Of a stretch of DNA of 64,000 nt, positions 20,416 through 64,000 are shown one piece after another. The stretch lies in assembly GCA_963790205.1 (NCBI GenBank), contig CAWBNQ010000010.1, forward strand, positions 32,001-96,000, given 5' to 3'. The position numbers and the translations under genes were made by a program. The notes beneath the pieces were generated by a model. The model was not told where the DNA came from. It did no database searches and worked only from the letters and a program-made list of their open reading frames with translations. How positions within the stretch are numbered: position 1 is the stretch's first letter; every line of letters starts with the position of its first letter. This stretch comes from Nitrospirota bacterium. GTDB lineage: Bacteria > Nitrospirota > UBA9217.

Positions 20416-20421
20416 TTTTCG

Positions 20422-43069: not shown

Positions 43070-43183
43070 TTTGATCCTATCTGCATTTCGTCATTCCCGC
43101 GAAAGCGGGAATCCAGCGGCTCTTCATAAAACAGCGGATTCCGGGTTATCATTTCTACTTCCGCATTCCGCGATCCGCACTCG

Positions 43184-44374: not shown

Positions 44375-44991
44375 GGCCGCGACGCCCTCCGGACCTCGGT
44401 AATGAATTTCTTGATCTTTGCATGGTCCTTGATGCCCTTTTCCCTCTCAACGCCGCCGGCCACGTCCACGCCGTAGGGTTGGACGAGCTTTACGGCCTCG
44501 ACCACGTTTTCGGACGTAAGCCCGCCGGCCAGGATTATTCTCCCGAAGGTCTTGGCAACCACGGCCAAATGCCAGTCGAAGGTCGTGCCGGTGCCGCCCC
44601 GCACGCCGTCACGGTAGCTGTCGAGAAGCAGCGCGCTTACATGGTAATGCACCATGTGCTTGAGGCTCTCCTTGTCCTTCACCTGAAAGGCCTTGATCAC
44701 CCGGGTAGCGAAACGCTCGCAGAATTCCGGGCTCTCGTCTCCATGGAATTGAAGGACCTTGATGCCGGTGGTGAACATGATGTCCCGAATCTTTTCCTCA
44801 CGCTCGTTCACGAAGATGCCGACGGGCATGACAAAGGGAGGGAGCCGCTCGATGATCTCGGCCGCTTTGTCGGGCTCGATACAGCGGGGACTTTTCTTGT
44901 AGAAATTGAACCCCAGCGCATCCGCACCGAAATCGGCCGAGGCCAAAGCGTCGTCAAGATTGGTGATGCCGCAGATTTTGATTTTTATCAT
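44371..44991 (-). CDS. trpF: phosphoribosylanthranilate isomerase
   Basis: [36 protein letters not shown]. Confidence 0.95.
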
Positions 44992-45100
44992 AAGAAAAAC
45001 TTTTGACGCTGATGTGCACGAATGACTCTCTGATTTACGGTGATACGGCAACGCCGAACCCGTGTTAAGGATAATGGTTCAGTGCCCATCAGTGTCTCTC

Positions 45101-45880: not shown

Positions 45881-46093
45881 TATTCTAAAACACTCGCCGC
45901 AAATACACGTTTTAAAATCTTCTCTTGGCGCCTTTGCCTGCACCCGGCGCTTTCGAGCCTGTGGCCGGTGCTTATGAGCCTGCACCCAGCGTTTATGAGT
46001 GGAACCGCGAATACAGGCCATGCGCATGCGCGGCCTGCTCTTGCGAAGACGCGGCCATAAACAAGAGCAGGGTGTGCCTTCGTGGTAAATCCT

Positions 46094-47107
46094 TTACGGT
46101 TTATTCGTAAACGCTTTCAGCTGTTCCAGTTTTTCCAATGCCGCGCCGGAATCGATGGATTCAGTTGCCAGCCTGATGCCTTCCTGAAAATCCGAAACCC
46201 GCCCCGCGGCAACCAGTGCTGCGGCAGTGTTCATCAGAACGATGTCGCGGCGCGGGCCTTTCTCTCCCTTGAGGATCCCGGTCGTGATCGCCGCGTTGTC
46301 CTTCGCGTCGCCGCCCCGGAGGTCTTCGACTTTGCCTGCCGCAAATCCGAAATCAGCGGGGTGGATGAAATAGTCTTTCACCTTGCCGTCCCTGAATTCC
46401 GAGACCTTGGTCTTGCCTGTGATCGTGATCTCGTCGAGCCCGTCCATGCCGTGGACCACGAAGGCGTGCGCGGCACCGAGGTTCCCCAGTGCCCGTGCCA
46501 AAAGGCCGGTCAGGTCCGCGGAATAGACGCCCATGATCTGGGACGTCACTTTTGCGGGATTGGTAAGGGGCCCCAGCACGTTGAAGATGGTGCGGATGCC
46601 GATCTCCCGCCGCGGACCGATCGCGTACTTCATTGCCAGGTGCATCATCGGCGCGAAAAGGAAGCCGATGCCTACTTCGTTGATGCACGCTTCCGCGCGA
46701 AGGGAAGGAATTTCAATGTTCACGCCGAGCGCCTGGAGCACGTCGGCGCTCCCGCTCTTACTCGACACCGAACGGTTGCCGTGCTTGGCCACGGTAACGC
46801 CCGAGGCAGCCACGACAAAGGCCGCGGTCGTCGAAATGTTGAACGTATGGGCCATATCGCCGCCGGTGCCGCAGGTGTCAACCTGGTAGCGGGCATCGAG
46901 TTTGATCGGCACCGCCTTCTCGCGCATGACCCTGGCCGAACCCGTGATCTCCTCCACGGTCTCGCCCTTCATCCGGAGCGCCGTGATGTACGATGCGATC
47001 TGGGCGTCTGTGGCCTCGCCCTGCATGATCTCGCGCATTACCGCTTCGGCTTCGGCTTCGCTGAGGTTCGTTTTGGCTATGACTTTTGCGATGGCTTCTT
47101 TGATCAT
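46094..47107 (-). CDS. trpD: anthranilate phosphoribosyltransferase
   Basis: [47 protein letters not shown]. Confidence 0.96.
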
Positions 47108-47292
47108 AGGATCCCCATAAAACTCTGCCGCAGAGACACGGAGACACAGAAAAATAAAAACGAAATAAATTTATTGAATTTACTGCTCAGACCACAGTCG
47201 CCAATTATAAACTTTCGCGACTTCGCGGTTCAAATCCTGCTCTTCGATTCCCTCTGTGTCCTCTGTGCCTGTGGCTAATACGAATTTTGCTC

Positions 47293-47856
47293 TTACAGCT
47301 TCAAGAAGTTCCTGAGCAGGTCCTTGCCCACCGTGGTCAGGATCGATTCGGGATGGAACTGCACGCCCTCGACCTTGTACTGCTTGTGCCGCACGCCCAT
47401 GATCACGCCGTCGTCGGTCCAGGCCGTCACCTCGAGTACCGGCGGCAGCGTCTCACGCTTGATGATGAGCGAATGGTAGCGCGTGGCCTCGAAGGGGTTC
47501 GGGAGGCCGCTGAAGAGGGTCTTGTTATCGTGATGGATCATCGAGGTCTTGCCGTGCATCAAATAGGGAGCCCGGATCACGTCCCCGCCGAAGGCCTCGC
47601 CGATGGACTGGTGGCCGAGGCAGACGCCGAGGACCGGAATCTTTCCGGCAAAATGCCTGATCACGTCTATCGAGATCCCCGCCTCCTTGGGCGTGCACGG
47701 CCCCGGCGAGATCACGATCCGCTCGGGCCTCATCTTTTCGATCTCCGCGATGGTGATCTTGTTGTTCCGGTACACCTGCAGGCTCTGCCCCAGTTCGCCC
47801 AGATACTGGACCAGGTTGTAGGTGAAGGAATCGTAATTGTCGATCATCAATAACAT
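47293..47856 (-). CDS. trpG: anthranilate synthase component II (glutamine amidotransferase)
   Basis: [32 protein letters not shown]; operon context. Confidence 0.93.
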
Positions 47857-48019
47857 AGAAACAAACCTCTATCTCTCGCAGAGGCGCAGAGAGCGCAGAG
47901 TTAAAAAAATCACTTTACAAGGCTTTACTTTTCTCCGCGTCCTCAGCGTGCTCCGCGAGAAAAATGCTTTTGCTTTTTTGACTACTCCGAACTCTGCGCT
48001 CCACTCTCCGAGCTGTTTT

Positions 48020-49504
48020 CTAATCCAATCCCTTCTCCGCCATCTCCACCGCCCGCATCATGGCCTTGGCCTTGTTCACCGTTTCCTGGTACTCGGCAGC
48101 CGGGTCGCTGTCCGCCACGACGCCGCCGCCGGCCTGGATGTATGCCACGTTGTCCTTGATCACGAGCGTGCGGATGGTGATGCAGGTGTCCATGTTGCCC
48201 GAGAAGCCGAAGTACCCGACCGCGCCGGCATAGGGCCCGCGCCGCGTGGGCTCGAGCTCGTCGATGATCTGCATGGCCCTGATCTTCGGCGCGCCCGAGA
48301 CCGTGCCCGCCGGAAAGCAGGCCCGGATCACGTCGTAGGAGTCCTTGCCGGCGGAGAGTTTGCCCCGCACGTTCGATACGATATGCATCACGTGGGAGTA
48401 GCGTTCGATCACCATGAGCTCGGAAACCTGAACGCTCCCCGGCTCGCTCACCCTGCCCACGTCGTTCCTGCCGAGGTCCACGAGCATGATATGCTCGGCC
48501 CGCTCCTTGGGATCGGCCAGAAGCTCGTCGGCAAGCGCCTTGTCCTCTTCCTCGGTCGCCCCGCGCCTGCGCGTGCCGGCGATCGGCCTGAGATCGATCC
48601 TGCCGTCCTCGAGCCTGACCATCACCTCCGGCGACGCCCCCACCACGGTCGCGTCACCGCACCGGAGAAAATACATATAGGGAGACGGGTTGATCAACCG
48701 GAGCGCCCGGTAAATTTCATAGGGCTCGACCTTGATCCCCGTCTGAAACCGCTGCGACGGCACCACCTGGAAAATATCGCCCGCCTTGATATACTCTTTG
48801 GCCTTGAGCACCGCCTGCTCGTACTGAGGCCGGGTAAAGTTCGAGGTGAGCGGCTGTTCCTTCGTCTTTTTTCGCCTCCCGCCTCCCGCCTCACGCTTCC
48901 CGGCCCCCTTCAGCTTCCTGACCAGCGCGTCGATCTTCTTCGTCGCTTCCTTATAGGAAGCCTCAACCGTCCTGCCTTTCACATGCGCGTTCGATACAAC
49001 CTTGATCCGGTGCGTGACATTGTCGAAGATCACGAGCGTGTCGGTGATCATGAAAAAGATATCGGGAAGATCGAGGCCGTTCTTTTCCCGCTCCGGCAAC
49101 TCTTCAAAAAAACGGATAACATCATAGCCCATGAATCCCACAGCCCCGCCGAAAAAGCGCGGCAGCGAAGGATCGGGAACGGGGGCGTAGGAGGACAGAA
49201 GGTCTTTTATCACTTCGAGCGGATCGCGGTCAAAGGGCAATCGTTCCTTCCTGCCGTTCCTGATGATTTCCGCGGTGCGGCCGAAGCTCTTGACGATCAC
49301 CGACGGACGGCTGCCGAGGAAGGAATAGCGCGCCCACTTCTCGCCTCCCTCCATGCTTTCGAGGAGAAAGGAATGTCGTCCGTCGTCGATTTTAAGGAAT
49401 GCCGAAACCGGGGTCTCCATGTCCGCGAGGATCTCGCGATACACCGGGATAAGATTGCCTTTTTTCGCCTTTTGCCTGAATTCCTCGAGTGAAGGCTGAA
49501 ACAT
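48020..49504 (-). CDS. trpE: anthranilate synthase component I
   Basis: FLLES, NPSPYM, PIAGTRRRG, EHIMLVDLGRND, FPAGTVSGAPK, QAGGGVVADS. Confidence 0.96.
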   Translation of the reverse strand: MFQPSLEEFRQKAKKGNLIPVYREILADMETPVSAFLKIDDGRHSFLLESMEGGEKWARYSFLGSRPSVIVKSFGRTAEIIRNGRKERLPFDRDPLEVIKDLLSSYAPVPDPSLPRFFGGAVGFMGYDVIRFFEELPEREKNGLDLPDIFFMITDTLVIFDNVTHRIKVVSNAHVKGRTVEASYKEATKKIDALVRKLKGAGKREAGGGRRKKTKEQPLTSNFTRPQYEQAVLKAKEYIKAGDIFQVVPSQRFQTGIKVEPYEIYRALRLINPSPYMYFLRCGDATVVGASPEVMVRLEDGRIDLRPIAGTRRRGATEEEDKALADELLADPKERAEHIMLVDLGRNDVGRVSEPGSVQVSELMVIERYSHVMHIVSNVRGKLSAGKDSYDVIRACFPAGTVSGAPKIRAMQIIDELEPTRRGPYAGAVGYFGFSGNMDTCITIRTLVIKDNVAYIQAGGGVVADSDPAAEYQETVNKAKAMMRAVEMAEKGLD

Positions 49505-49685: not shown

Positions 49686-50864
49686 TCAAAAGATCGGCCT
49701 GTCGAACCTGGTTTTATTGTACTCGTCGATCTTTTTGACAGCAGCTTCCCGATAGGCGTCCTTGAGCGCCGGATCGGACTGTTCGAAAGTGATCAAGCCT
49801 GAGTCAAAGATACTGACGGACCGTTGTTTTGAGTCCTGCTGCCAGCGGGCCGTGATCCCGCCGGGCTGCGGGACGGTTTCGACAGGCGTTCCGTAGACCT
49901 TGATGAATCGATCAAGCTTCTGCTGTACGTCCGTGTAGACATGCATATCGGTGAACTTCGCCGTGGAAAAGGAGGCGTAATAAAGCTTTTTCTTCAGGCT
50001 GCTGTCCTTCCCGGCCCCGGCCTGGTCTCCCGTGAACTTCAGCACAATGGTGCCGAGATCCACCCCCTCAAAGGCCTGGGACTCATAATCCAGCGCCGTG
50101 AAGAAATCGTATTCTTTCGCCACATAGTCTGTAACAGCATACTGCGGGGCGGCCTCGTCACGCTCCTCATCCAGCTCGAGCCTGTTCTGATAGCGCTTCC
50201 AATAAAGCGCGGACGCTTCCTTGAGGGACATCCCCAACTTGAACTTCTGTACCGCGTCTATCCATTGATACAGCCAGCTGTTGATCTTCTTGGGACGCAG
50301 CTCCAAGCATGCCTGGACCAGCGCGTCATTGCCGAGTGTAAGCGCCAGTGTCCTCTTGTTCCCCTGCGGGGCCGTCGTCACGGCTGTTAATTTTATGCCG
50401 CCCGCCCCCTGCTCGCATTGCCCCCAGCAGAAGTCCAGCGGGTCGCCTTGAGCCCCCGAGAACAGCGGCGTGCCGTATTTGGCGACCAGTTTTTCCCTGA
50501 ATTTCGGGACGGCAAGTTCGGTCTCTTCCGTCGTAAACGATGTAGTAAGTTCCACCTTCCCGAGAATGTATCCTTTGGCGCTGCAGGTCAACAGGAGCCT
50601 GATTTCCGTCCCCGGGGAAGGGCTGTAGGCAAAAATATCGGAGAAGCCCGTTTCGTAGCCATGGACCTTTTTTTTCCATAATAATTGTTTCACCTGCCCC
50701 ACGGTCATGCCGATGCGAAAACCTTGGATATTCAGCGGAGCAGCGGTCTTTACGGTCTTTTTAGTTTTGACCGCTTTGGCGTACATCGGCTGCGCAATGC
50801 CGAGCAGTAAAACAGCGGCGAGCATAAGGGTCATGGTCGTTTTTTCTCTTTGCGGTCTTTCCAT
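49686..50864 (-). CDS. secreted hypothetical protein with two internally similar domains
   Basis: GGAG RBS; signal peptide ...AQPMYA; GFRIGMT...KYGTP and KFKLGMS...VYGTP halves. Confidence 0.65.
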   Translation of the reverse strand: MERPQREKTTMTLMLAAVLLLGIAQPMYAKAVKTKKTVKTAAPLNIQGFRIGMTVGQVKQLLWKKKVHGYETGFSDIFAYSPSPGTEIRLLLTCSAKGYILGKVELTTSFTTEETELAVPKFREKLVAKYGTPLFSGAQGDPLDFCWGQCEQGAGGIKLTAVTTAPQGNKRTLALTLGNDALVQACLELRPKKINSWLYQWIDAVQKFKLGMSLKEASALYWKRYQNRLELDEERDEAAPQYAVTDYVAKEYDFFTALDYESQAFEGVDLGTIVLKFTGDQAGAGKDSSLKKKLYYASFSTAKFTDMHVYTDVQQKLDRFIKVYGTPVETVPQPGGITARWQQDSKQRSVSIFDSGLITFEQSDPALKDAYREAAVKKIDEYNKTRFDRPIF

Positions 50865-51028
50865 TGGGGTCTCCTTTTCCTCTTTTCGATTGGCGCTTAC
50901 AGGGGGCACTAGCGTCAACTTGTCGCAACTGTTTCCCGCTGAACATTCTCCCGAAGGAAGCAGAAATCTCAGAAGATCGGAGCAGCGATTGTTGGTCCTT
51001 CCGGAACGGTCCTGATGATACCGCAAGA

Positions 51029-51113
51029 AAGGTTGAAGCAGAAAACTTCTTAAAAAAATAAATGTTTTTGTACTGTACCAAATAGGCGGAAGGACTGTCA
51101 ATCAAAAAACCTG
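51029..51113 (-). repeat. degenerate duplicate of the trpE promoter/RBS/first codons (copy of 49491-49575)
   Basis: GTTTTTGTACT(A/G)TACCAAATAGGC....ACTGTCAATCAAAAAACCTG shared; similarity extends into ATGTTTCAGCCT vs CTGCTTCAACCT. Confidence 0.8.
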
Positions 51114-51202: not shown

Positions 51203-54200
51203 TCACTTGATCTTGACTTTGAATGTCACGGAAAAAATTGTGCTCTGGGGGCTGGGGGCCCCGTTAAACGTGCCTGAAGGCGTGATCTGAATGTTTGTCA
51301 CATTCGAGTCATAGCCGTTGGAGTCGGCGGCCGGCGTATAGCCGTAGGACACGCCGCTGTTATTGGAGTATGTTAACGAAATCCCGGTCAGTCCGCAGAC
51401 AGGCGACGCACTGCAGGTGAACCCCATGACCGGATTGCTGCAAAGGGTAGAAACGCACATGCTCGTGTTTGTCGGAATCGGATCAGTGATCACCGTGGTA
51501 TTGGCGTCCACGGAGCCGTAGCTGCTGTTCGTCACCTGGACGGTGTAAAGTATCATCGCGCCGGGAATGGCCTTCGGATTGGTCGTTCCGTTATAGGGAT
51601 CGGAATAGGTCTGGGCCGATTTAAGGACCGAGAGACTCGGCGTAATTTTGAATGTGCCGACCCTGGAGTCCGAAATCGCGCCTTCCGTGCCCTCCCATGC
51701 ACGCACGGCCGCGGACCAATTCCCTGAGGCCGCGGGCGCTGTGGGCATGAACGCATACTCGAACGTTTTCGTCGCAGCGCCTGAGTCATTGACCAGGGGC
51801 ATAGGGACATTCATTACTTTGTTGGCGCTGGTCGGGTCTGTGATCGTGAGCGTCGGGAGGCTGACGATGTCATAGCTTCCGAAGGGGTCGCTTACCACGG
51901 CGCGTACGTAGATCGTTCCGGTCGTGAAAGACGAGAGCGCCGTCCCGCCGCCGCTTAAATAACTCGCATTATAGGCAGTGACGCTGTTTATGTTGATGAC
52001 GTTTTGTGAGGGCAGGTTGACGTACGAATTGTTCGTGCCGCTCATCGGGGACACGATTACGTTTAGAGTTCCGCCGCCGGCAGTCGTGTTTTGCACGGTG
52101 AGCGCCCAATTGGAAGCACAGGTCAGCGCTGCTCCGAGTGGCAAAGTGAATGTCTTCAGGGCTGCCGTAGTTGTGAGCGCCAGGGTCTGCGTCTGCGTGA
52201 GAGTCGTGCCTCCGCATGCAAGAGTAACAACAACCGTCCTACTTCCCGCTGCATTGCTGGCCAAATAAAGATAAACAGGCACGTTGGCGTTAATCGTGTC
52301 ATTGGACTGCAAGGCCGGGTTGAGGGTCCAGACTTGGGATTGGCCCCCTTTTGTCAAGGGAACAGTGCCTGCGAGGCCGGTCGGCTTCGTCCGTGATAAT
52401 TTATGGGTTGGAGTGGAAGTATTGTCATAGAGATACAGCGGCTTGTTGCCGCTGGCCGCGTTTACCGTGACCGTGCCGGCTGCCGGTGTCCCGCCCGTGC
52501 CCGCGGAGGGCGTGATCGTGGCGGTATTGCTGATCGTAGTGCCGTTAACAGCCGAGGAAGCGATGGTCACTGTAAATACGATGGTGACGGACCCGTTCGC
52601 GGGGACGGTGATGTTGGAGAGATTGAGATAGCCCGTTCCGTTTGTACCGCCCGTTGGCAAGGAGTTGTCGGAGCACGTCGGCTCGCTTACGATCGTGAAG
52701 TTGGTCACATTCGCGGGCATATTATCCGTTACCGTCACGCCCGTGGCATTGACGCCGGCGGTCTCTTTGAGCGTAATGGTATACTGCAGAGTGTCGCCGG
52801 GACTGGCGTTGGCCAGTGTGTTGTTAAGATCGGCAACCGCCTTGGTCGAGGTGGAGAAGTTGTTGTTCACCGCGAAGCTCACCGTGGCGCTGTTGTTGTT
52901 GGAGTTGTAGTCCGTGATCGAGCCCGGTATGACGAGGCTTGCGGTGTTGGTAAGCATACTGGGCGCGGGCGCGCTTACGGTGCCCCTGATCGTATAGGTC
53001 ACATAGCCATTTAAGGGAAGGTTGGCGGTCGTGTTGATCGTGTTCCCGCTTCCCGAGGCCGCGCCGCAGGAAGAGGTGCCGTATGTTGATGATGTTGCCG
53101 TACAGGTCCAGGTAACGCCGGTGATGACCGACGGCACGGTGTCTTGGATCCCGACACCGTTCGCCGTCACGTTGTTGGGACCGGTATTAGCCGCGATCAC
53201 GGTGTATTGGATCGTGTCACCCACAGACGCGGTCGTGGTCGAACCGCTCGTTACGTCCGTGAATGTCTTGGTAATGGCGAGGTCGATCGCGGAGGTCGTG
53301 GTCTGATTGCTCACCAGGAGGTTGCGGATCTCATGATAGTTCGTGGAGCCGCCGGTGCTGGCGGCGTATCCCATCATGAGCTGTTGGGATGTCGAGATCG
53401 CGGGGAGCGCCTGGTTCGTGATCATCTGCGTATAGACAAGCGGGGAGTTGTAGCCGAATGCGACCCAGACATTGGCAACCGGATTGGGCGCCGGGCTGAT
53501 CTGTATGCGCACCTTGCGGTAATTCACGCCGGTTTGGGACGGTCGTGGCGTACCGTTGTACCACAGTGAGCCGGGGCTGCCGGAGGTGGCGATCCAGGGG
53601 TAAGAAGTTGTGCCAGTCGTTGACCCGATGGCGCCCCCGCCGAAGCCGACCACGGAGCCGCGTATTGTCACCGTGTTGGGCTGTTGTGAAGCTCCCAGGT
53701 AGCGTCCTTCACAGCCGTAGGCAAAATTACCGAACTCATCGACGCCGATCCCCACATAGCCGCCGCTGATTCCCGCTACGCTCGGTGTAACCGGATTGCA
53801 CGCAGCAGTGGACAGCTTCTGTGCATAACCGAGGGAGCCGCCGAAGGCGCCGATATTGAAGGTACTTACCCCGGCGTCGAACAGGTAGACGCTGTAGCCG
53901 TCGGCGCCGTTCCCCCCCCAAGTGGCGTAATCGAACTCGATAAGAAGCCCTGCGCTCAGGTCAAAAGTGGTGGTGTTATAGGCAAACCCGGTCTGGTTGC
54001 CCGAAGCGCTGGTCAGCCGCAGCCATCCCTGCCCCACCGGATCGATGACGCCGTTTCCGGTCAGCAAGGCGGACGTGGGATTGCCCCCCAGGACCCAGCC
54101 CGCGCTGTTCGTGTCGGTCATCGGTGCGTTGATGATGATCGCGGCAGAAGCGCCGCCCACAAGGCCCCCTCCCAGCGCAACCAGGGCCAAGGCCAGGATA

Positions 54201-54256
54201 ATGCAGGCGGCACGCAATTCTTCTCCTACCTTGTTGAAATTGAAAAAAGGTTTCAT
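51203..54256 (-). CDS. secreted adhesin: legume-lectin-like domain plus DUF11 Ig-like domains (candidate pilus tip)
   Basis: Signal peptide; GWLRLT..NQTG, GADG, GIGVDEFGNF, AASTGGSTNYHEI; DLAITKT..GDTIQYT; C-terminal SDPYNGTTNPKAIPGA domain; start could be 54295. Confidence 0.85.
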   Translation of the reverse strand: MKPFFNFNKVGEELRAACIILALALVALGGGLVGGASAAIIINAPMTDTNSAGWVLGGNPTSALLTGNGVIDPVGQGWLRLTSASGNQTGFAYNTTTFDLSAGLLIEFDYATWGGNGADGYSVYLFDAGVSTFNIGAFGGSLGYAQKLSTAACNPVTPSVAGISGGYVGIGVDEFGNFAYGCEGRYLGASQQPNTVTIRGSVVGFGGGAIGSTTGTTSYPWIATSGSPGSLWYNGTPRPSQTGVNYRKVRIQISPAPNPVANVWVAFGYNSPLVYTQMITNQALPAISTSQQLMMGYAASTGGSTNYHEIRNLLVSNQTTTSAIDLAITKTFTDVTSGSTTTASVGDTIQYTVIAANTGPNNVTANGVGIQDTVPSVITGVTWTCTATSSTYGTSSCGAASGSGNTINTTANLPLNGYVTYTIRGTVSAPAPSMLTNTASLVIPGSITDYNSNNNSATVSFAVNNNFSTSTKAVADLNNTLANASPGDTLQYTITLKETAGVNATGVTVTDNMPANVTNFTIVSEPTCSDNSLPTGGTNGTGYLNLSNITVPANGSVTIVFTVTIASSAVNGTTISNTATITPSAGTGGTPAAGTVTVNAASGNKPLYLYDNTSTPTHKLSRTKPTGLAGTVPLTKGGQSQVWTLNPALQSNDTINANVPVYLYLASNAAGSRTVVVTLACGGTTLTQTQTLALTTTAALKTFTLPLGAALTCASNWALTVQNTTAGGGTLNVIVSPMSGTNNSYVNLPSQNVININSVTAYNASYLSGGGTALSSFTTGTIYVRAVVSDPFGSYDIVSLPTLTITDPTSANKVMNVPMPLVNDSGAATKTFEYAFMPTAPAASGNWSAAVRAWEGTEGAISDSRVGTFKITPSLSVLKSAQTYSDPYNGTTNPKAIPGAMILYTVQVTNSSYGSVDANTTVITDPIPTNTSMCVSTLCSNPVMGFTCSASPVCGLTGISLTYSNNSGVSYGYTPAADSNGYDSNVTNIQITPSGTFNGAPSPQSTIFSVTFKVKIK

Positions 54257-54519
54257 GCGGCAGGCGCTGTCTTTTTTTCGAGGATGACTCTTCATGACGA
54301 TATAATTAAAAATGTTTATTACCGTATTCGTAATCCCGGAGTCAATGAATCCAGATCGAAAACCCCATACAACTCCGATACTGCTGCTGCCTGTATAGCA
54401 GCATATCTTTTTGAATACTATCAAAAAATTATTTTTTATTCAACAAAAAAACATGTATTTCCGCAGGGTTTGGATTCCACTCCCATGATCTGATCAGCGC
54501 GAAAAATCGCTTCATCATT

Positions 54520-54897
54520 TTAGTACGCTTTAAAAGCATGCCGCTCAACGGCTTCCACGAACTCGTCGGTCCTGAGCGGCTTGGACAAGTATCCGCACAT
54601 GCCGGCATCCAGGCACAGCTTTTTCCCGTCACCCTCGGCAGCCGCCGAAACAGCAATAATGGGAACGTCATGCCTTCTTACCGGAGATGCATGACTTCTT
54701 ATGATTCTCGTGGCTTCGATACCGTCCATCACGGGCATATGAACATCCATCAAGACGATGTCGAAATCCTCTTTCTCCAGTTGTTCTATTGCTTCCTTCC
54801 CGTTTTTAGCCGTCTTCACGCAGTGCCCCCGTTTTTCGAGGATCCGTGCGGTCAGCATCCGGTTGGTCAGGATATCATCTACGACAAGCACTCTCAC
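54520..54897 (-). CDS. single-domain response regulator
   Basis: VLVVDD, LMDVHMPVMDG, YLSKP. Confidence 0.9.
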   Translation of the reverse strand: MRVLVVDDILTNRMLTARILEKRGHCVKTAKNGKEAIEQLEKEDFDIVLMDVHMPVMDGIEATRIIRSHASPVRRHDVPIIAVSAAAEGDGKKLCLDAGMCGYLSKPLRTDEFVEAVERHAFKAY

Positions 54898-55062
54898 TGG
54901 CTGCCATCTCCACGCTGCTATGAATCATACCTGTTCATGCCTGCTGCTCAGGCTGGGAAAAATACTGAAACCACAATCGCCATGGTCCGGTCCCGCACAG
55001 TCAAGTCATGAGAACTTTGCATAATGCAAAGATGGGACCTTGCTGGTTTATAATGTTTTATT

Positions 55063-55078
55063 TGCAAAAACACTGCCA
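55063..55078 (-). promoter_or_regulatory. sigma54 -24/-12 promoter
   Basis: TGGCAGTGTTTTTGCA (GG-N10-GC) upstream of the response regulator and adhesin. Confidence 0.7.
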
Positions 55079-55216
55079 GAAAACAACTATTTGATTATAT
55101 GAACGTAATAGGTCGCGAATGAAGTGAATGAAGTCATCGAGGTAGGAATTATTACTGCTTACAAGGAAATATTCCCGTCCCAAGAGGTCTTGATGCTCGC
55201 AGGGGGCAACCCGCCC

Positions 55217-56557
55217 CTATTCAATGCCGTGCTCGCTCATCTTCGACCGGAGAGTTTTGACGTCAACCTGCAAAATTTCAGCGGCCCTGGCCTTGTTGCC
55301 CTTTGTCGTTTCGAGGGCCTTCCTGATGAGTTTCTTCTCGATACCGCTCACGGCTTCTCTCAGCGGCACTAAGGCGCTGTCCGCACTGGCCTCCTTTCCG
55401 CCCAGAAGAAATTCGACGTGGTCCGGCCCGATGTTCTCTCCGCCCGATAGCAGCACCGCCCTCCTGATCACATTCTTCAATTCCCTCAGGTTCCCCGGCC
55501 AGGGGTATTGCATCATGCGGTCCATGGCCTGACTGCTCATCACGGCGACCGGCATATTCAGTTCCGAGGCGGCCAATTCGCAAAATTTATTGGCGAAAAA
55601 AGGTATATCTTCGGCCCGCTCTCTCAAGGGCGGCAGCGTGATGATGAACTCGCCCAGCCGGAAAAACAGGTCCTCCCTGAATTTCCCCTCCTGCACGCTC
55701 TTCTGGAGGTCCGCATTGGTGGCGGCAATGAACCTGATGTCCAGGTTGATGATTTTTCTGCCGCCGAGGCGGCTGACCTCCCGGCTCTCCAGGACGCTCA
55801 GGAGCTTGCTCTGTACGGACAGGGGCACGTTCTCCAGGTCATCGAGGAACGCGGTGCCTTTGTCCGCGGCCTCAAAAAAACCTTTTTGGGTCTGAACAGC
55901 GCCGGTGAAGGCGCCCCTTTCATAGCCGAAAAGCTCGCCCTCGATGATGGTTTCGGGCATCGACCCCATGTCGATCTTCACGAACCCCTTGTCCGCCCGC
56001 CTGCTCATGTTGTGCAGGATCTTCGCCAGGAGCGTTTTCCCCGTGCCGGTTTCCCCCTGGATGATGACCGAGAAATCAGTCCCCGCCACCTGCTTCAGTT
56101 GCTCGGCGATCTTCTTCATGGCCGGCGCCTTACCCGCGAAGCGTTCCAGCGAGGCGTTCTCGGAGGTATGAAGCCTGGCCAGCTCACGCTCCAGCCGGTA
56201 CTTTTCCAGCGCCCTTCGCACGGTGATGATGAGTTTCCCCGGCTCCACCGGTTTCACGAGAAAATCGTATGCGCCGAGTTTCATGGTTTCCACCGCCGTC
56301 GCTGTATCTCCGCTGGCGGTCGAGATGATGACCGGTATTGACGGGTCGATCTCCTTCAATATCCGTATGGTCTCAATACCGTCCATGACGGGCATGATGA
56401 GGTCGAGGATGACGATTGCCGGCGCTTCCCGTCGAAAACGGTCCACGGCCTGGCTGCCATCGGCCGCCTCGACTACCTGCAGTCCCTCCTTTTCCAGTAT
56501 CCTGGCGAGCATGGTCCGCGTTACCTTCTCATCTTCCACAATGAGGACCTTGTCCAT
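55217..56557 (-). CDS. NtrC-family sigma54-dependent response regulator
   Basis: REC, GETGTGKT, GAFTGA, FREDLFFRL, WPGNLREL, Fis-type HTH; Walker B reads FLDDL. Confidence 0.93.
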   Translation of the reverse strand: MDKVLIVEDEKVTRTMLARILEKEGLQVVEAADGSQAVDRFRREAPAIVILDLIMPVMDGIETIRILKEIDPSIPVIISTASGDTATAVETMKLGAYDFLVKPVEPGKLIITVRRALEKYRLERELARLHTSENASLERFAGKAPAMKKIAEQLKQVAGTDFSVIIQGETGTGKTLLAKILHNMSRRADKGFVKIDMGSMPETIIEGELFGYERGAFTGAVQTQKGFFEAADKGTAFLDDLENVPLSVQSKLLSVLESREVSRLGGRKIINLDIRFIAATNADLQKSVQEGKFREDLFFRLGEFIITLPPLRERAEDIPFFANKFCELAASELNMPVAVMSSQAMDRMMQYPWPGNLRELKNVIRRAVLLSGGENIGPDHVEFLLGGKEASADSALVPLREAVSGIEKKLIRKALETTKGNKARAAEILQVDVKTLRSKMSEHGIE

Positions 56558-56727
56558 TCCCTCGTTCCCTCCCCGCCTCCTATTGAGAATCGCGACGCAC
56601 ATGCAGACGTTTAAACTATAGCACGGTGAGCGCTTCGAGGACAACCGATTTTTTTACCAAAACCGGCCTCTTGCCAAGACCCGCAAACTTTTGTATAGTA
56701 GGAGTGCAGCAAGGGAGCATAACCACG

Positions 56728-59412
56728 ATGTTCTACCTCACGCCCTATGTCATCCAGCCCCTGTTCTCGGCCGTCGTCTGCGGAGGGCTGGCCGCTTATG
56801 CCTGGCGTCGGAGAAACGTGCCGGCGGCCGTGCCCGTCTTCGCGGCCATGCTCATCGCGGCTGTCTGGTCCCTCTGCTACGCGCTCAACACCGCCGCAAC
56901 GAGCCTCGCCCTCAAGGTGTTCTTCTATCAGGCCGCCACCACCTTCGCGGCGTTCATAGGACCTGCGACGCTTGCCTTGGCGCTGGAGATCACGGGGTTC
57001 GGACAGTGGCTGACCCGCCGCAGGCTCGCCGTGCTGTGCGCCCTCTCCGGCGTCTTCGTCCTCCTGGCATGGAGCGGGGAGCATCACGCCCTTTTCCGAT
57101 ACGGGTTCTCGCTCATCCGAAACGGCCCTCTGCTGCTGCTCGACTTCAAGCAAGGGTGGGCCTGGTATATCTATAGTGCCTACGTAAACGGCCTCATGAT
57201 CGCCGCCCTGGCCCTTTTCCTGGCGCGTGCCCTGCGCAGTCCCGCCGTGTCCCGGCCCCGTTTTTACCTTCTCTTCGTGGGAACGCTCATCCCCATGCTT
57301 GTGGAAAGCCTGAATCTCACGCCAATTGAAAAGTTCAGCATGACCACCTCAACCTTCTGGTTTACCGGCTGCTGCTACATCCTGGTCATCTTCCGGCACC
57401 GGCTGTTGGAGGTGGAGCCGGTCGCCCGCGCGGCGCTCTTCGACCAATTGGAGGAACCGATCCTTGTCTTCGACGACCAGGGCACGCTGGTGGATTGCAA
57501 CCGCGCTGCGCAGAAATTGCTCAGCCCCGGAGCCGGACTCGCGAAGCTGAGCGCCGCCGCGTTCACCCGCTTTCCGATGCTCCAGTCACTGTCGAACCGG
57601 CCCCTGATCGTAATTGATGCTTTCGTAAAAGATGCCGAGGATGATCAGCGCTACTGGAGGATAAAGTCCCTGCCGCTCACAAGGGGGCTCCTCACGGTCG
57701 GGAACCTCGTTCAGCTGTACGACATCAGCGTCCTCAAGCGGAGCGAAGAGGAACGCCGTCGGGCGCACGATGCAGCGGAGGCGGCCAACCGCGCCAAATC
57801 GGTCTTTCTTGCGAACGTGAGCCATGAGCTTCGTACACCCCTGAACGCGATCATCGGCTTTACGGACCTTGTCCTCGACACTGAGTTGACCCTGGACCAG
57901 AAGAACTGTCTCGAAACCGTCAACCATTCGGCTGTGACGCTCCTTGCCATCCTGAACGACATCATGGATTTTTCAAAGATAGAGGCCGGGAAGATGGAGC
58001 TCGAAGAGGTCGATTTCGACCTGCGACAACTGGTTCACACAGCAATAAGGACGCTCTCCCTGCAGGCAGAAAATAAGGGGCTGAAACTGGAGTATTCCAT
58101 CGACCCTGACGTTCCGACGGTCTTGACGGGGGATCCCCTGAGACTGCAGCAGATTTTGCTCAACCTTGCAGGGAACGCGATCAAGTTCACTGAACAAGGC
58201 GAAGTGAAGATATCGGTACAGACCGCGCCGTCGAACCCAGAGCTTAAATTGAGGCGTCGGACAGATCGTCCGCGTTCCTCCGTAGGGATCCTTTTTAAAG
58301 TTAGCGACACCGGCATAGGAATACCCGAGGACAAACTGCGCAGTATCTTCTCGAGTTTTACGCAGGCCGACAGCTCCATTACCAGAAGATACGGAGGCAC
58401 AGGCCTGGGACTCACCATTTCGAACCAATTGGCCGGAATGATGGGAGAAGAGCTGAGGGTTGAAAGCACGCCGGGAGAAGGAAGCGTTTTTTACTTTACC
58501 GCGCGGTTCGCCCCCGGCCGCGAAGACTTTAACCAGGCAGCGAGAGGGGACGTACCTCAAACGCCGCTGCCCCATAAAAGCATGCATGTCCTTCTGGTAG
58601 AAGATAGTGCAACCAACCGGATGCTCACGGTACGCCTGCTCGAAAAACGAGGACACCTGGTGAGAACGGCGAACAGCGGGAAAGAAGCGATAGAGTTATT
58701 GGAGAGGCAAATTTTCGATGCCGTTCTCATGGACGTCCAGATGCCGGGGATGGATGGCTGTGAGGCCGCACGGATCATCAGGGACCCCCATTCGTCCGTA
58801 CTGAGGCATGATGTCCCCATTATCGCGCTGACCGCCCATGCCATGGCCGGCGATAAGGAGCGCTGCCTTGCCGCCGGCATGAACGGATATCTATCCAAAC
58901 CGCTACGGCTTGATGAATTTATCGAGGTTGTTGAGATGCATGCGGGTCGAGGTCCCCTGTCAACCATTACGCAGGCAGCGAACACGGATGTTTCGTATGA
59001 TGCTGATCACGGCCCACCCGTGCCGGGAACACAACGTGAAACGATCGGCGGAGCAATCATCACGGGGGAAACAGACCCGCTGAAAAAAATCAAAGAAGTG
59101 CTCCTCATACAGTATGAGGGCGACGAACGGCTCGTTGAGGAACTGCTCGAAGTCTTCCGGAACGAGATACCCGGCCTCGTCCGTAGGATCCGGGACGCCG
59201 TTGAAGCACGTGATTTCGCGCATCTCGCGATGCATGCCCATGCCTGTAAGAGCGCGGTAGGAGCTGTCGGGCTCACTGCTGCGAGTGAAATCGTTTCCAC
59301 AATCGAAAACGCGGCAAAAACGGAAGACATCGAGAACGCTGCCCGTAATTATGAAAAGCTCACACGGGAATTGAAAAGTTTTAAACTTCTGGCCAGTCGC
59401 CTGATACCATGA
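56728..59412 (+). CDS. hybrid histidine kinase (7TM-PAS-HisKA-HATPase-REC-Hpt)
   Basis: 7TM N-terminus, [55 protein letters not shown]. Confidence 0.92.
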
Positions 59413-59704
59413 AGAACATAAAAGCCCTCTGTATGCCTGGTATTCGATCCGAGAGCTGGAAGCTCTTCCGGACCAAATGCCCGGACATGCCCGATTCAAA
59501 ACGTATTTAGCCGCAGAAGGTTTTCGCCGCGCGGGAAATTCACCGGGAGAGCCCAAGATTAGCGGTGCTCACTGTGTGCAGCAAAGATGACCTGCAGTTT
59601 TAGAAGAACTGTTTTCCAGTATTTCTTCCCCGAATAAGTGATTTTTTCCCTCATCATCACCCCATAAATAAATTTTTTTTATTTAAAAACAACATATTAC
59701 CATA

Positions 59705-59720
59705 AGGCACGCCATTTGCA
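59705..59720 (+). promoter_or_regulatory. sigma54 -24/-12 promoter of the DUF11 operon
   Basis: AGGCACGCCATTTGCA (GG-N10-GC). Confidence 0.7.
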
Positions 59721-59972
59721 TAACTAAGCTTAATATAAACATAACACTTTATTATTATTTTTAAAAATTTTAATGAAATTGAACAGCTTTTAAAAACCTT
59801 GATAAAAATAACGCATTAGAAAACAACAAAAAAAAGTATTGCGTAAAAAAATTAATCGTTACTATATGTAACATAAAGTATTACAAATTTTTCGTGATTT
59901 TAATACAGTTTTTATGTATAACAATAAGTTATAATTTGACTAATTTTTTTGTTATCATCGGGATTTTTTTAA

Positions 59973-61172
59973 ATGAATCAAGATGGATCTGAGAAAACCC
60001 GTTATCGTCAAATAGTTTTGACATGGGACCAGGCGCTGCTTATGGGAACGTTTAATAAAATAGTCTTGACGCTCGTGCATGGGGACGCACACACGCGTAA
60101 AAAATTGCGCGTGTTGTTTGCTGCCGTCCTCTTCATCGTGTCGTTCCTGTCCGCAATAGATGCCCATGCCGTGGGCACCCCTGTCGGAACAGTGCTCGGC
60201 AGCCAGGCCACAGCGCACTACACCATAGGCACGAGCAATTATTCCACGTTGAGCAATATGACCACCTTCAGGGTGGACGACAAGGTCTCATTTACCCTGA
60301 CAGCCAGTGATTCCGCAAACGTAACGATCCTCCCCAACAGCAGGGCATACATGACGTATGTCCTGACCAACACCGGAAACGGCCCGCATGATTTTACGCT
60401 CACTCAGGCGGTCTCGGGAATTCCCACGCTGACGCCTGCAGCAGGCCCCACGTTTTATTCTGATCAGGCCGGTACGGCCGCGCTGCCGACCGACGTGAAC
60501 GCCGGCGGCCTTCCCTACCTCAGCAGCCTGGCATCCGATGGGACCAAGACGATCTACTTGTATATAACGGCTCCCTCAACGCCAACGGACGGACAGACAG
60601 CCGATTATCTCATCACTGCCGAGGCCTACCAGCCCAATAATCTCGGCACGGTAAACCCGCCGGTGAAATCTTCAACGCAAGCCGCTGCCGATGCATCTAT
60701 CGACAAAAATGCAAATTTCACGACTCAGTATGTCGTCCTGGCTGACGGGCAGGGCAACGGCGGAGATGCGCTCAGAGACGGCAAGTACGCCGAACTCGCG
60801 AAGGACGGGAGCAACAGAACCGTGGGGTTCAAAGCGCAATCAGGGTCGGTGAACGTGGCCAAAACGGCCACAGTAACGGACGAGCTCGGCGGCAGCCAGC
60901 CCATGACCGGAGCAACGATCCATTACATTCTCGCCGTGACGGTGACCGGTTCGGGGACGGCGATGAACGTGGTGATCGCGGACCCCATCCCGTTGAACAC
61001 GACCTACACTGCCGGCACGCTCAAATTGAACGGCGTCACCCTTACTGATGCGGCGGACCCTGACGCTGGAGATGTGGGCGGAACGACACCGGGGACCGTT
61101 ACGGTAAAGCTGGGGAGTTTGACGAACGCCTCGCCGGTCCAGACCGTCACGTTCGATGTGAAGATAAATTGA
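59973..61172 (+). CDS. secreted DUF11-family pilin-like protein A
   Basis: Signal peptide ..AHA|VGTPVGTVLGSQATAHY; C-terminal VAKT..IADPIP..VTFDVKIN; start uncertain. Confidence 0.82.
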   Translation: MNQDGSEKTRYRQIVLTWDQALLMGTFNKIVLTLVHGDAHTRKKLRVLFAAVLFIVSFLSAIDAHAVGTPVGTVLGSQATAHYTIGTSNYSTLSNMTTFRVDDKVSFTLTASDSANVTILPNSRAYMTYVLTNTGNGPHDFTLTQAVSGIPTLTPAAGPTFYSDQAGTAALPTDVNAGGLPYLSSLASDGTKTIYLYITAPSTPTDGQTADYLITAEAYQPNNLGTVNPPVKSSTQAAADASIDKNANFTTQYVVLADGQGNGGDALRDGKYAELAKDGSNRTVGFKAQSGSVNVAKTATVTDELGGSQPMTGATIHYILAVTVTGSGTAMNVVIADPIPLNTTYTAGTLKLNGVTLTDAADPDAGDVGGTTPGTVTVKLGSLTNASPVQTVTFDVKIN

Positions 61173-61354
61173 TTCTGGGGAAGCTTGATTGAGAAAAATA
61201 CGGCATGCGGGGATTTTGCAATCTCCAAAAGGAGGCGGGCCATGCGAACAGGATAATTGATACAGATGAAAAAAAACGACGATCGCGCAATCTCATGCGA
61301 AGACCTCTTTATCGAACGTCTTCGCGGCAACAATCAAGTTTGAAGGAGAATACC

Positions 61355-62476
61355 ATGAGTACAATTCGTAAATCCATGTTTCCGGCCTTGCTCCTTATCG
61401 GAGTAATGGCCGTCCTGGCGCCGCAGCACGCTCTCGCGGCGGGCACCGCGTCGGGAACAATCATCAACAACAAGGCCACCATGAACTATCAGGCCGGAGG
61501 CGTTGCCCAGACGCTCATCGAGAGCTCTCCCACGGGCAACACGACCCCCGGCGCCGGGAACGGCGCCAACACGTGGTTCTACGTTGCCAACAAGGTCAAT
61601 GTCGTGGTGACGAACACCGGCAACGCCACGGTGATTCCCGGCTCGACGAAGCAGGCGCTGGTGTTCACCATTACCAACAGCGGCAACACCCCTCAGAGTT
61701 ATGCATTAGCGGCAAACCTTGTGTCCGGCCAGACCATGAGCAATGTCGCGATCTACTTGACCAATATCGCCCCTCCCACCCAGTATAATGCCGGCGACAC
61801 TCCATACGTGGATGCAACCACCTTCGGCACTATCGCTTCGGACGCAACCTACACCGTGCTGGTCGTGGCGGACGCGCCGCTCTCATTGACCAACGGCCAG
61901 ACCGGCGTATACAATCTGATCGCGACGACCACGAATGCAGGTACCACAACCGTTACTGCGCAAACAGCCGGCGCAGCCAACCTTCAGACCAACTCTCCGC
62001 TGGATGTGGTCTTTGCCGATGCCGCCGGAACCGATGACTCCGCCCGGGACGGAAAGATGTCGGCGCGAGGGACCTACACGGTTAGCGCGCCGGTGCTGAC
62101 GGTCACCAAGACCACGGCGGTCTACTCTGATCCGTTCAATGGCACCACGAACCCGAAGGCGATCCCCGGCGCGGTCATGACCTACACGATCACGATCGCG
62201 AATGGGGCCGGCGGCGCGACCGCCACGTCAGTTTCGATCGTGGACGCCGTCCCGGCGAATACGACGTTCAAAACCACGTACGTTGACGCCTCTACCACCT
62301 GCTCAGGCGCAGACGGCATCGTGGTGGGCGCGGGGGCCGGGGTCTGCAAAACCAACACGAACGATGGGGACGGCGCGGACTACAACGTATCGAATGCAGG
62401 CGCGGTGACGGTGACAGGGCTTTCGGTCGCCGCCAGCGCCAGCGCTGTTGTCAGGTTCCAGGTTACGATCAATTAA
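61355..62476 (+). CDS. secreted DUF11-family pilin-like protein B (candidate major subunit)
   Basis: AAGGAG RBS; ALA|AGTASGTIINNKATMNY; VTKT..SDPFNGTTNPKAIPGA..IVDAVP..VRFQVTIN. Confidence 0.85.
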   Translation: MSTIRKSMFPALLLIGVMAVLAPQHALAAGTASGTIINNKATMNYQAGGVAQTLIESSPTGNTTPGAGNGANTWFYVANKVNVVVTNTGNATVIPGSTKQALVFTITNSGNTPQSYALAANLVSGQTMSNVAIYLTNIAPPTQYNAGDTPYVDATTFGTIASDATYTVLVVADAPLSLTNGQTGVYNLIATTTNAGTTTVTAQTAGAANLQTNSPLDVVFADAAGTDDSARDGKMSARGTYTVSAPVLTVTKTTAVYSDPFNGTTNPKAIPGAVMTYTITIANGAGGATATSVSIVDAVPANTTFKTTYVDASTTCSGADGIVVGAGAGVCKTNTNDGDGADYNVSNAGAVTVTGLSVAASASAVVRFQVTIN

Positions 62477-62539
62477 GAGAAGCGATCATTCCATGATGGT
62501 CTAGTAAAAAACAGGAATGAAACAAAAAAGGAGGAACTC

Positions 62540-63034
62540 ATGAAAAGAACGGTAATCAGCATCTTGGTCGCGCTTTTGCTCCTTCCTGCCGCGGCACGGG
62601 CGCAGCAAAAGGGAAGCGTAGAACTTAAATCGATTGCGGAAGTTGAGGTCACGAAAACGAACGCAAAGGGCGAAAAGGAGGTGAAACGCGTTGACACGGC
62701 CAAGGCCAAGGTCGTGCCGGGCGATATGGTCATCTTTACGACGACCTACACGAACATCGGCAAGCAACCGGCGGACAAGGTCGTGATCACGAACCCCGTG
62801 CCCGAACATATGGATTACCTGGACAAGAGCGCCGAGGGCAAAGGAGCGAAAATAGACTTCTCCGTGGACAAGGGAAAGAGCTACGAAACTCCCGATAAGC
62901 TTATGGTCACGGACGCGCAGGGAAAGACGCGGAAGGCGCGGCCTGCGGATTATACAACCATCCGGTGGACCCTGATCAAACCCGTGCCGCCGGGCGGCGC
63001 AGGCAGCGTCTCCTTCAGGGCCAAGCTGCAATAA
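62540..63034 (+). CDS. secreted single-domain DUF11-like protein (candidate chaperone/cap)
   Basis: AGGAGG RBS; signal peptide; PGDMVIFTTTYTN, ITNPVP, IRW, VSFRAKLQ; highly charged. Confidence 0.8.
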   Translation: MKRTVISILVALLLLPAAARAQQKGSVELKSIAEVEVTKTNAKGEKEVKRVDTAKAKVVPGDMVIFTTTYTNIGKQPADKVVITNPVPEHMDYLDKSAEGKGAKIDFSVDKGKSYETPDKLMVTDAQGKTRKARPADYTTIRWTLIKPVPPGGAGSVSFRAKLQ

Positions 63035-63263
63035 AGCAGGAAATGACGTACCGTCCCGGTCACGTGGATCGGGAATGAATCAACAGAGATAATTTCGGGC
63101 ACATTGGTTGAAAAATTTTAACAAGGAGGCAATTCGTGTGAAAGGATAATCAGAGGGGAAGCATCACAAAAGAAAGTTAATAATTATGAAACGCATCTAC
63201 GGACTACGGTCCGAACAGGCACATAAAACCATATAAAACGCAGCAGAACGTAAAGGAGAAAAA

Positions 63264-64000
63264 ATGAAGACAGTAACGAAAAACATAGCATTGGCGCTGC
63301 TCCTCATCGGAGCGATGGCAATGCTGGCGCCGCAAACGGCCCTGGCGCTCGGCACCGCCGCAGGCACCCCGATAACCAACAACGCCGCCGTTAACTATAG
63401 CGTGAACGGCACGGGTCAGCCCCAGGTAAATGCCTCAGCAACCTTCAAGGTTGACGACAAGGTCAGCTTCACGTTGACTGCCCAGGATTCCGCGAACGTG
63501 ACGATCTCCCCCAGCGGCGCAGCATACCAGACCTATGTGTTGACCAATACCGGCAACGGCCCTCATGACTTTACCCTCGGTCCGGTAGTAATAGGCGGCA
63601 ATACCCTTGCGCCTGCCACGGGGCCCACCTTGTATTCCACGAATACGGGTACGGGCGGCACGCAGTTGCCTATCGATGGAACCGCCACTCTTCCGTACAT
63701 CAGCAATCTGGCGTCCGACGCGACAAGGACGGTCTATATGTACATAACCGCGTCAGCAACGCCCACTGATGGACAGTTTGCCGACTATACGGTTACCGCC
63801 ACGGCATACCAGCCCGGTAATCTCGGGAACCCGACCCCCGTCAAATCCTCAGTGCAAGCAGCAACGGATGCGACCGTTGACAAGAATTTAAATCTTAACG
63901 GTCAGGTATATGTCGTCCTGGCGGACGGACAGGGCAACGGCGGAGATGGGCTCAGGGACGGCCTGTATGCCGTCATCGCGAAAAGCGGCGGCGGCTCCAC
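63264..64000 (+). CDS. secreted DUF11-family pilin-like protein D, paralog of protein A (runs off window; absent from ORF track)
   Basis: AAGGAG RBS; MKTVTKNIALALLLIGAMAMLAPQTALA|LGTAAGTPITNNAAVNY...FKVDDKVSFTLTA...YVLTNTGNGPHDFTL. Confidence 0.85.
   Translation, partial: MKTVTKNIALALLLIGAMAMLAPQTALALGTAAGTPITNNAAVNYSVNGTGQPQVNASATFKVDDKVSFTLTAQDSANVTISPSGAAYQTYVLTNTGNGPHDFTLGPVVIGGNTLAPATGPTLYSTNTGTGGTQLPIDGTATLPYISNLASDATRTVYMYITASATPTDGQFADYTVTATAYQPGNLGNPTPVKSSVQAATDATVDKNLNLNGQVYVVLADGQGNGGDGLRDGLYAVIAKSGGGS

Follow-up and report, generated by a model that had tools for sequence, protein, structure and literature searches.

The question raised by this locus is what is built by secreted proteins whose C-terminal domains stop two strands short of completion while the missing strands stand at the N-termini of other proteins encoded beside them. 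The locus lies at the right-hand end of the 64,000-nucleotide stretch of Nitrospirota DNA analysed here (the window, G000:C10:32001-96000; positions past 64000 are extended window coordinates). It encodes a putative tip adhesin, three pilins (A, B and D), a small secreted protein (C) and an outer-membrane barrel protein, and the domain concerned is CLIPPER (DUF11). The best explanation is probably a sortase- and usher-free, isopeptide-locked pilus of head-to-tail split-CLIPPER subunits, likely rooted in its own outer-membrane barrel. Judged from its sequences, the split-CLIPPER system is real, conserved and mechanistically coherent, and the gene cluster is widespread across several diderm phyla.

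The divided CLIPPER domain

CLIPPER resembles CnaA; its Lys715-Asn806 bond has been solved, and Asp748 is the presumed catalyst of that bond (PMC12617251; PDB 9IFR). In the proteins of this locus the domain is present in two pieces. The larger, here called the acceptor, is a CLIPPER/DUF11 domain without its last two strands and is C-terminal in five proteins (the adhesin, A, B, C and D). The smaller, the donor, is the missing two-strand hairpin and is found right after the signal peptide in four (A, B, D and the barrel protein of 2017 amino acids (aa)). The signal sequences end in Ala-X-Ala, as judged by eye, and the pilins end at a beta-strand with no tail. The motifs quoted in the first-pass annotation of this stretch are all found in the translations, and A, B, C and the adhesin stop at the strand it had named, as does D, which ends in VKYMVTIN at 64388. 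The strands that it had placed at the mature N-termini of three proteins are likewise present, but each is a hairpin of two strands, and the barrel protein bears a fourth.

Lys, Asp and Asn stand within one continuous domain only in internal copies in the tip and barrel proteins; the terminal domains end before the Asn strand. Both internal domains of the tip are intact (K386/D428/N493 and K528/D567/N633), and this protein has no N-terminal donor. Its acceptor is 38% identical to that of B (E 4e-18). Against a profile of the intact domain, derived from two unrelated giant adhesins (37 intact repeats), the acceptors match within positions 10-93 of 135 (A at 12-93, B at 10-90), and the N-terminus of B matches at 96-131, weakly when taken alone (iE, the independent E-value, 0.31). 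PF01345 is over its cut-off for the tip, C, D and the barrel protein, below it for A and without a match for B, and TIGR01451 is over its cut-off for the tip, A, B and C.

The triad is strongly conserved in B. In the close set (the best 120 of 820 homologues) K252 and D297 are kept in 120/120 and N39 in 119/120, and both inter-domain linkers are of one fixed length in all 120. The distant set was drawn from 141 new hits; after removal of 3 that were at least 500 aa long, it comprises 138 representatives from clustering at 50% identity. Lys is found there in 135/138, Asp in 136/138 and Asn in 131/138, and in 130 of the 138, more than chance would give, the C-terminal end falls exactly six residues from the equivalent of Phe368 of B. 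The pilin has matches in 1,549 clusters (50% identity) altogether when E is set at 1e-30 or better. A Lys-Asn isopeptide bond between neighbouring subunits is likely, given the conserved residues and the chemistry of CLIPPER. The first-pass annotation had put Lys and Asp on one subunit and Asn on the next; this fits B and D, but in C the Lys and Asp positions are taken by Ser31 and Asn85, and the donor of A has Ser77 for Asn, so that the joint made by A would be non-covalent in this genome. By these residues, then, not every junction is covalent, the exceptions being C and the donor of this A.

A genome scan, in which 556 of 607 matched stretches were confirmed, returned 80 other loci. Their hosts include Nitrospirota, Desulfobacterales, Alpha- and Gammaproteobacteria, Burkholderiales, Verrucomicrobiota, Fibrobacteraceae, Eisenbacteria and Zixibacteria, among others. 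The system is also present in cultured Sphingomonadales, so it could be tested at once, and a plasmid search gave one record (Novosphingobium sp. THN1). The gene order pilin-C-pilin(-pilin)-barrel occurs in 69 of 81 loci, the present one included; of the 12 exceptions most are truncated at the end of a contig, a single one carries a broken pilin, and another differs in order. Across the 80 other loci the downstream pilins keep Lys in 77/77, Asp in 77/77 and Asn in 78/78, the upstream pilins keep them in 72/73, 73/73 and 64/73, and the tips have Lys and Asp in 50/52 each. The acceptor loop is of the KAIPG type in 76/78 downstream pilins, 45/52 tips and 14/73 upstream pilins, and of the DPxGG type in 61/73 upstream pilins. 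The N-terminal heads of the tip proteins are highly variable and the acceptor is constant. The head of the present tip has no Pfam match and may be lectin-like by its motifs. Of 151 genomes sampled evenly from the host's phylum, 15 have the pilin, all 15 with a barrel match at E below 1e-150, and one more, fragmented genome has the barrel without a pilin match.

The halves are also distributed unevenly among protein types. A donor pattern is found near the N-terminus of 68 of 75 barrel proteins, compared with 3 of 2604 control open reading frames (ORFs); six of the remaining seven have a looser form and one is a fragment. Among the tips the pattern occurs in 1/52, where it is located in an internal complete domain, and the looser pattern occurs in 0/76 homologues of C.

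Subunit models, protein C and the barrel

The model of the B monomer (predicted local distance difference test, pLDDT, 95.7) consists of the hairpin and two Ig-like domains. In the homodimer model, one B lends its N-terminal hairpin to the C-terminal domain of the other, which is thereby completed. This model scores 0.77, the best of three controls scoring 0.00, and the mark used is reached by 20/30 solved pairs and 1/23 single chains. At least 98% of contacts agree between runs, with pLDDT of at least 93. The interface is one-way, open and head-to-tail, with residues 216-275 and 330-345 of copy 1 (mature numbering) facing 1-52 and the middle domain of copy 2. K224 and D269 both contact A13, two residues from N11, and a reactive Lys-Asp-Asn geometry would be consistent with these contacts. 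Fold searches with the B model gave single-domain Ig matches only (best Z 8.8) and listed no solved fibre of the pilin family, and a PDB sequence search with B, the second CLIPPER domain of the tip and the fusion P0243 gave nothing meaningful.

Natural fusions show the same join. The 696-aa P0243 consists of two tandem pilins in which acceptor 1 is joined to donor 2 by five residues, and the junction matches the intact-domain profile continuously at 13-125. A longer pilin subfamily of ~870-980 aa (P0384-P0425) has a donor start and an acceptor end. The donor pattern opens 19/19 of its members, picked from 42 long hits, and a second, internal donor is present in 15/19, near residue 310-350, after the internal acceptor where one is detected. 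Two of these proteins are named Deinococcus and Armatimonadetes, and at one locus of the subfamily (L090:5480-18003, + strand) the order is C, pilin, barrel, tip. The head-to-tail complementation proposed in the first-pass annotation thus finds support in the asymmetric dimer model, in the donor-only barrel and acceptor-only tip proteins, in the natural fusion and in the fixed linkers.

Protein C has an acceptor in which the reactive positions are replaced. The Lys position is Ser or Thr in 119/120 close homologues and the Asp position is Asn in 120/120; across 76 other loci Lys is found in 0/76, and the Asp position holds Asn in 70/76 and Asp in 5/76. Lys39 of C, considered as a substitute reactive Lys, was rejected, being kept in 7/120. 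The protein is 30% charged, compared with 8-13% in the pilins, and an Atlas search for it gave only DUF11-labelled clusters. An acceptor lacking the reactive Lys and Asp fits a reversible cap, and C is likely a non-covalent cap or chaperone for donor hairpins.

The first-pass annotation had advised a search beyond 64 kb for an export or anchor gene, and the 2017-aa outer-membrane protein was found there. It carries a donor hairpin with N97 after the signal peptide, an Ig-like stalk with one complete CLIPPER domain, an OmpA domain (816-918) and a C-terminal barrel (1195-2017). The model of region 1195-2017 (pLDDT 81.5) contains an unbroken series of 31 strands between model positions 253 and 806, preceded by as many as eight more around an inserted domain; from this list of strands we read a predicted wall of 36-38. 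Comparisons with solved barrels are generic, with Foldseek TM-scores of 0.25 or less by query length and VIA matches (SprA, LptD, usher and Omp85 compared) of Z up to 15.7 at a root mean square deviation (rmsd) of 4.8-18. FimD gives a partial, generic match (Z 12.9, rmsd 4.8, 268/823 aligned), and an Atlas search returned only unnamed clusters. The OmpA domain is present in 12/63 full-length barrel proteins, this one included, and absent from 51/63. Four genomes with weaker barrel matches were inspected. Two of them carry divergent split-pilin operons, a third encodes a 4553-aa protein in which many intact CLIPPER domains are fused to the barrel family (L088:3330-16991, + strand), and the fourth has a 2587-aa CLIPPER protein beside the barrel gene. 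The barrel family therefore accompanies CLIPPER stalks, split or not, which favours a role in display or export.

Assembly and alternative explanations

The proposed mechanism can be set out as five inferences in falling order of confidence. In the completed domain, Asn of subunit n+1 would be buried together with the Lys and Asp of subunit n, and bonding would be spontaneous, as in intact CLIPPER. The acceptor-only adhesin would be the tip, the B-type pilins the shaft, and the donor-only barrel protein would close and anchor the base. C would hold donor hairpins reversibly in the periplasm, as a mirror image of the PapD chaperone. The barrel would be the exit pore. Lastly, A would be an adaptor giving a non-covalent joint, since its acceptor loop differs and its donor here lacks Asn. 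In such a scheme the subunits would reach the periplasm by Sec, the tip acceptor would take a B-type donor, and B would then repeat, each joint being locked by Lys-Asn. The chain would leave through the barrel, and the barrel protein's own donor would terminate and anchor it, perhaps via A, with D as an extra subunit in this genome. The length of the fibre and its export route are what we infer from this scheme.

Several points weigh against it. The donor of the base is fixed covalently to the barrel, which leaves open how subunits are added before termination, and the fibre, the crosslink and expression are predicted rather than observed. In the dimer modelling suggested as a check by the first-pass annotation the N-terminal hairpin does enter the other copy, but K224-N11 is absent from the 25 lowest-error pairs listed, and the output gives no distances; the dimer may also have passed partly from likeness to solved intact CnaA domains. 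The alignment of the B acceptor model to GBS104 (3txa 182-680; 99 aligned, rmsd 2.9) speaks for the split in that it ends before Asn692 of GBS104 (PMC12617251), but its Z of 6.9 is within the range of common arrangements. The donor profile is weak and missed the donors of the locus's own A and barrel proteins, so that its 0/52 on tips counts little and the pattern count carries the point. P0243 is a single-member cluster, from two contigs. The homologues and loci are related, and the counts taken from them are not independent trials.

That the pilins are circular permutants, each with its own hairpin in its own C-terminal domain and yielding crosslinked monomers or closed dimers, is already largely excluded and has the slightest probability of the alternatives considered. 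In its favour, confidence in the monomer model extends to the hairpin (pLDDT 90-98). However, donor-only barrel proteins and acceptor-only tips would stay unexplained, and since these complete domains only across chains they form the strongest argument against permutation. Short linkers of constant length and a one-way dimer model also tell against it, as does, if weakly, the end-to-end alignment of the monomer (1-345) on an extended integrin leg (rmsd near 10). The folding back of the N-terminal strand into its own chain, named by the first-pass annotation as the outcome that would count against it, was thus not what the one-way dimer and the donor-only and acceptor-only proteins indicate. 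It is improbable, to a somewhat lesser degree, that a donor-hairpin fibre forms but stays non-covalent, Lys, Asp and Asn being kept for folding only. The donor of A lacks Asn here and in 9/73 relatives, some DUF11 domains have no bond (PMC12617251), and the reactive Lys-Asp-Asn geometry is a prediction. Against this, the three residues hardly change from phylum to phylum while the acceptor is for the most part variable, and C has lost exactly the Lys and the Asp, a loss sensible only if those residues react.

Two further alternatives concern what the joints build and where. A short tether of fixed composition (tip, one or few pilins, barrel protein), and not a long polymer, is unlikely but carries appreciable weight. 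The barrel family is also fused to the unsplit 4553-aa tandem-CLIPPER stalk or stands beside the 2587-aa protein, the distinct KAIPG and DPxGG loops could encode a fixed order, and an excess of B is an assumption. On the other hand, the model pairs the donor of B with the acceptor of B and leaves the remaining ends unoccupied, and tip and B share a loop type, so nothing evident prevents B from repeating; a dead acceptor is also easier to explain if runaway polymerisation must be restrained. Very improbable, only a little above permutation, is a chain that hangs from the barrel protein as a periplasmic or envelope scaffold instead of a surface pilus. The OmpA domain between the donor-bearing stalk and the barrel fits a periplasmic stalk equally well, which is a further point against the surface pilus, and the orientation and pore of the barrel are presumed. 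That domain is absent from 51/63 barrel proteins, however, the variable tip heads on a constant acceptor are adhesin-like, and in the literature CLIPPER domains form the stalks of adhesins on the cell surface (PMC12617251). An isopeptide-locked surface pilus remains the probable reading.

Known pili and the surroundings of the locus

CLIPPER itself (PF01345, PMC12617251) provides the same family and the same Lys/Asp/Asn triad, with intact copies in the tip and barrel proteins here. In print the bond is made within one chain in tandem stalks, whereas in the present proteins the cut falls ahead of the Asn strand and separate chains carry the halves; the main text of that paper does not contain the word 'donor'. 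The closest mechanism in the accessible literature is that of the BsaA fibres of Clostridium perfringens, of the TasA family (10.1101/2024.11.04.621531), where an Asn-bearing N-terminal donor strand enters the next subunit, which gives Lys and the catalytic acid, and an intermolecular isopeptide bond forms autocatalytically with no sortase. BsaA differs in its TasA-like fold, Glu catalyst, single strand, SipW processing and monoderm host, the triad-bearing members that the paper names being mostly Clostridia. The present system has instead a CLIPPER domain with Asp, a two-strand hairpin, two-domain pilins, a dead-acceptor protein and an outer-membrane barrel. No TasA-family Pfam match was found at E 0.1 for the locus proteins, the catalytic position is Asp in 120/120 (not an N-E-K triad), and the TasA fold is not among the top fold matches listed for the B model, which does not exclude it.

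Chaperone-usher pili (Fim, Pap; PMC13721041) share a tip adhesin that has only an acceptor, donation from the N-terminus to whichever subunit is more distal, and a small periplasmic helper and outer-membrane barrel in one operon. Completion of the neighbour's Ig fold by an N-terminal donor, as in these pili, is also predicted here by the model. They differ in being non-covalent, in a chaperone, PapD, that donates a strand where C can only accept, and in an usher of 24 strands where at least 31 are modelled here and the terminating donor is fused to the barrel protein. Usher PF00577 had no match in the genome (the control rang in Escherichia coli) or on the barrel protein, and PapD-type PF00345 had none in the genome. 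Sortase-assembled pili are set apart by the pilin C-terminus, which has no sorting signal and ends at a beta-strand, and by the lack of any PF04203 match in this 98%-complete genome, in keeping with the sortase-free assembly claimed by the first-pass annotation. Type V pili have lipoprotein precursors and a C-terminal donor strand exposed to use after protease cleavage; here the donor is N-terminal and the signals, by eye, end in Ala-X-Ala. The archaeal thread Saci_0406 resembles the system as a donor-strand filament with a proposed intermolecular isopeptide bond, but that bond joins Asn57 to the N-terminal amine of subunit n+2, has no Lys/Asp triad, and is archaea-specific in cells with no outer membrane (PMC9715654). 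The Elr/WxL pilus (10.64898/2026.10.17.759780), the Pam pili of candidate phyla radiation (CPR) bacteria (PMC13278184), Tafi (PMC11821415) and TLP-1 (PMC11494351) share the logic of tip, shaft and terminator by strand exchange, but have other folds and hosts, and their accessible texts report no split CLIPPER domain or such barrel. The DUF11 hook of Litorilinea (10.1101/2025.08.19.671072) was set aside as a different system, one long unsplit chain.

The literature searched, mostly without subscription papers and supplements, was found to describe neither the operon nor a split-CLIPPER pilus. The first-pass annotation could recall no characterised system of this layout; that stands, but the chemistry has its precedent in BsaA. 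As a whole the system falls outside each pilus family tested, while single tricks have precedents (BsaA, CLIPPER, chaperone-usher logic). A bolder formulation, which may equally hold or fail, is a separate Gram-negative pilus class with its own pathway. In it a tandem-repeat adhesin stalk has been cut into self-ligating modules and the dead acceptor serves as a reversed chaperone; the covalent chain would be exported by a barrel of ~36-38 strands, whose own donor hairpin would terminate it. Unsplit giant CLIPPER adhesins would be displayed by this barrel family as well, and the family would then constitute a route of protein secretion, so far unrecognised, in many diderm phyla. In a 2026 review (PMC13721041) the covalent crosslinking of pili is associated with the sortases of monoderm bacteria. 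If the present account is true, diderms have a covalent pilus with no ligating enzyme, a chaperone of opposite polarity and a barrel without close solved relative. The split, self-ligating pairs of domains, which differ in specificity, would be a natural family on offer.

Features of the locus are collected in the table. The tip adhesin gene lies 5.5 kb upstream of the operon on the opposite strand, with signalling genes in between, and the body of pilin D is A-like (50% identical to A). A DDE transposase (G000:C10:102585-103823) directly follows the barrel gene.

Table. Genes and domain parts of the split-CLIPPER locus in window coordinates
Feature	Position	Strand	Remarks
Tip adhesin	51203-54424	-	1073 aa from TTG; likelier starts Met44 or Met57; signal peptide, N-terminal head, two complete CLIPPER domains, acceptor end
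Tip adhesin acceptor half-domain	51203-51646	-	K935, D981, major-type KAIPG loop; stop after VTFKVKIK
Single receiver domain	54520-54897	-	Between tip gene and operon
Sigma-54 activator	55217-56644	-	Between tip gene and operon
Seven-transmembrane (7TM) hybrid histidine kinase	56626-59412	+	Between tip gene and operon
Pilin A, minor type	59973-61172	+	Donor hairpin with Ser77 for Asn; middle Ig domain; acceptor K297, D337
Pilin B, major type, 373 aa	61355-62476	+	Signal 1-28; middle Ig domain 78-243; acceptor 244-373
Pilin B triad	N39 (61469), K252 (62108), D297 (62243)	+	N39 in donor hairpin; K252 and D297 in acceptor
Protein C, 164 aa	62540-63034	+	Secreted, acceptor-only; Ser31 and Asn85 at Lys and Asp positions
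Pilin D, 374 aa	63264-64388	+	Past window end from 64000; N40, K260, D310; B-type acceptor loop
Outer-membrane barrel protein, 2017 aa	64435-70488 (extended; G000:C10:96435-102488)	+	Wholly beyond window, directly behind D

It is a guess that the signalling genes at 54520-59412 regulate the pilus genes. Sigma-54-like sites at 55063-55078 (- strand) and 59705-59720 (+ strand) lie upstream of the receiver and tip genes and of pilin A, flanking the sigma-54 activator, and such sites are not above chance across the window (5 matches, 7.0 expected). At the other loci a good site lies upstream of 1/73 upstream pilins, 0/79 downstream pilins and 4/50 tips, with 0.0-0.1 in shuffles. An Rfam search of the operon gave no match, and no RNA data set carrying 59900-64000 was listed, which says nothing about expression. 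No second locus emerged in the genome when its 15,162 stop-to-stop ORFs of at least 100 aa were all scanned by profile. Omp85 genes are present in this genome, so the host is a diderm, and the nearest named homologues of the pilus proteins are from Nitrospirota.

Elsewhere in the window, a 471-aa ORF (49686-51101, - strand) stands right after the tip adhesin and has no Pfam or NCBIfam match. An ordinary run of tryptophan biosynthesis genes (42248-49504, - strand) was recognised by eye from the translations. A c-di-GMP-I riboswitch (31867-31944, - strand, 61.3 bits) lies directly upstream of an 834-aa ORF without a Pfam match (29294-31798, - strand). The region 19000-26803 (- strand) encodes an RHS protein, with SpvB/TcdB-middle and FG-GAP domains across the overlapping ORFs 23873-26803 and 20422-23964; a phage tail-collar ORF (19000-19821, - strand) comes next. 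An ISL3 transposase is present in two copies, at 5064-6320 and at 17686-18942 (- strand).

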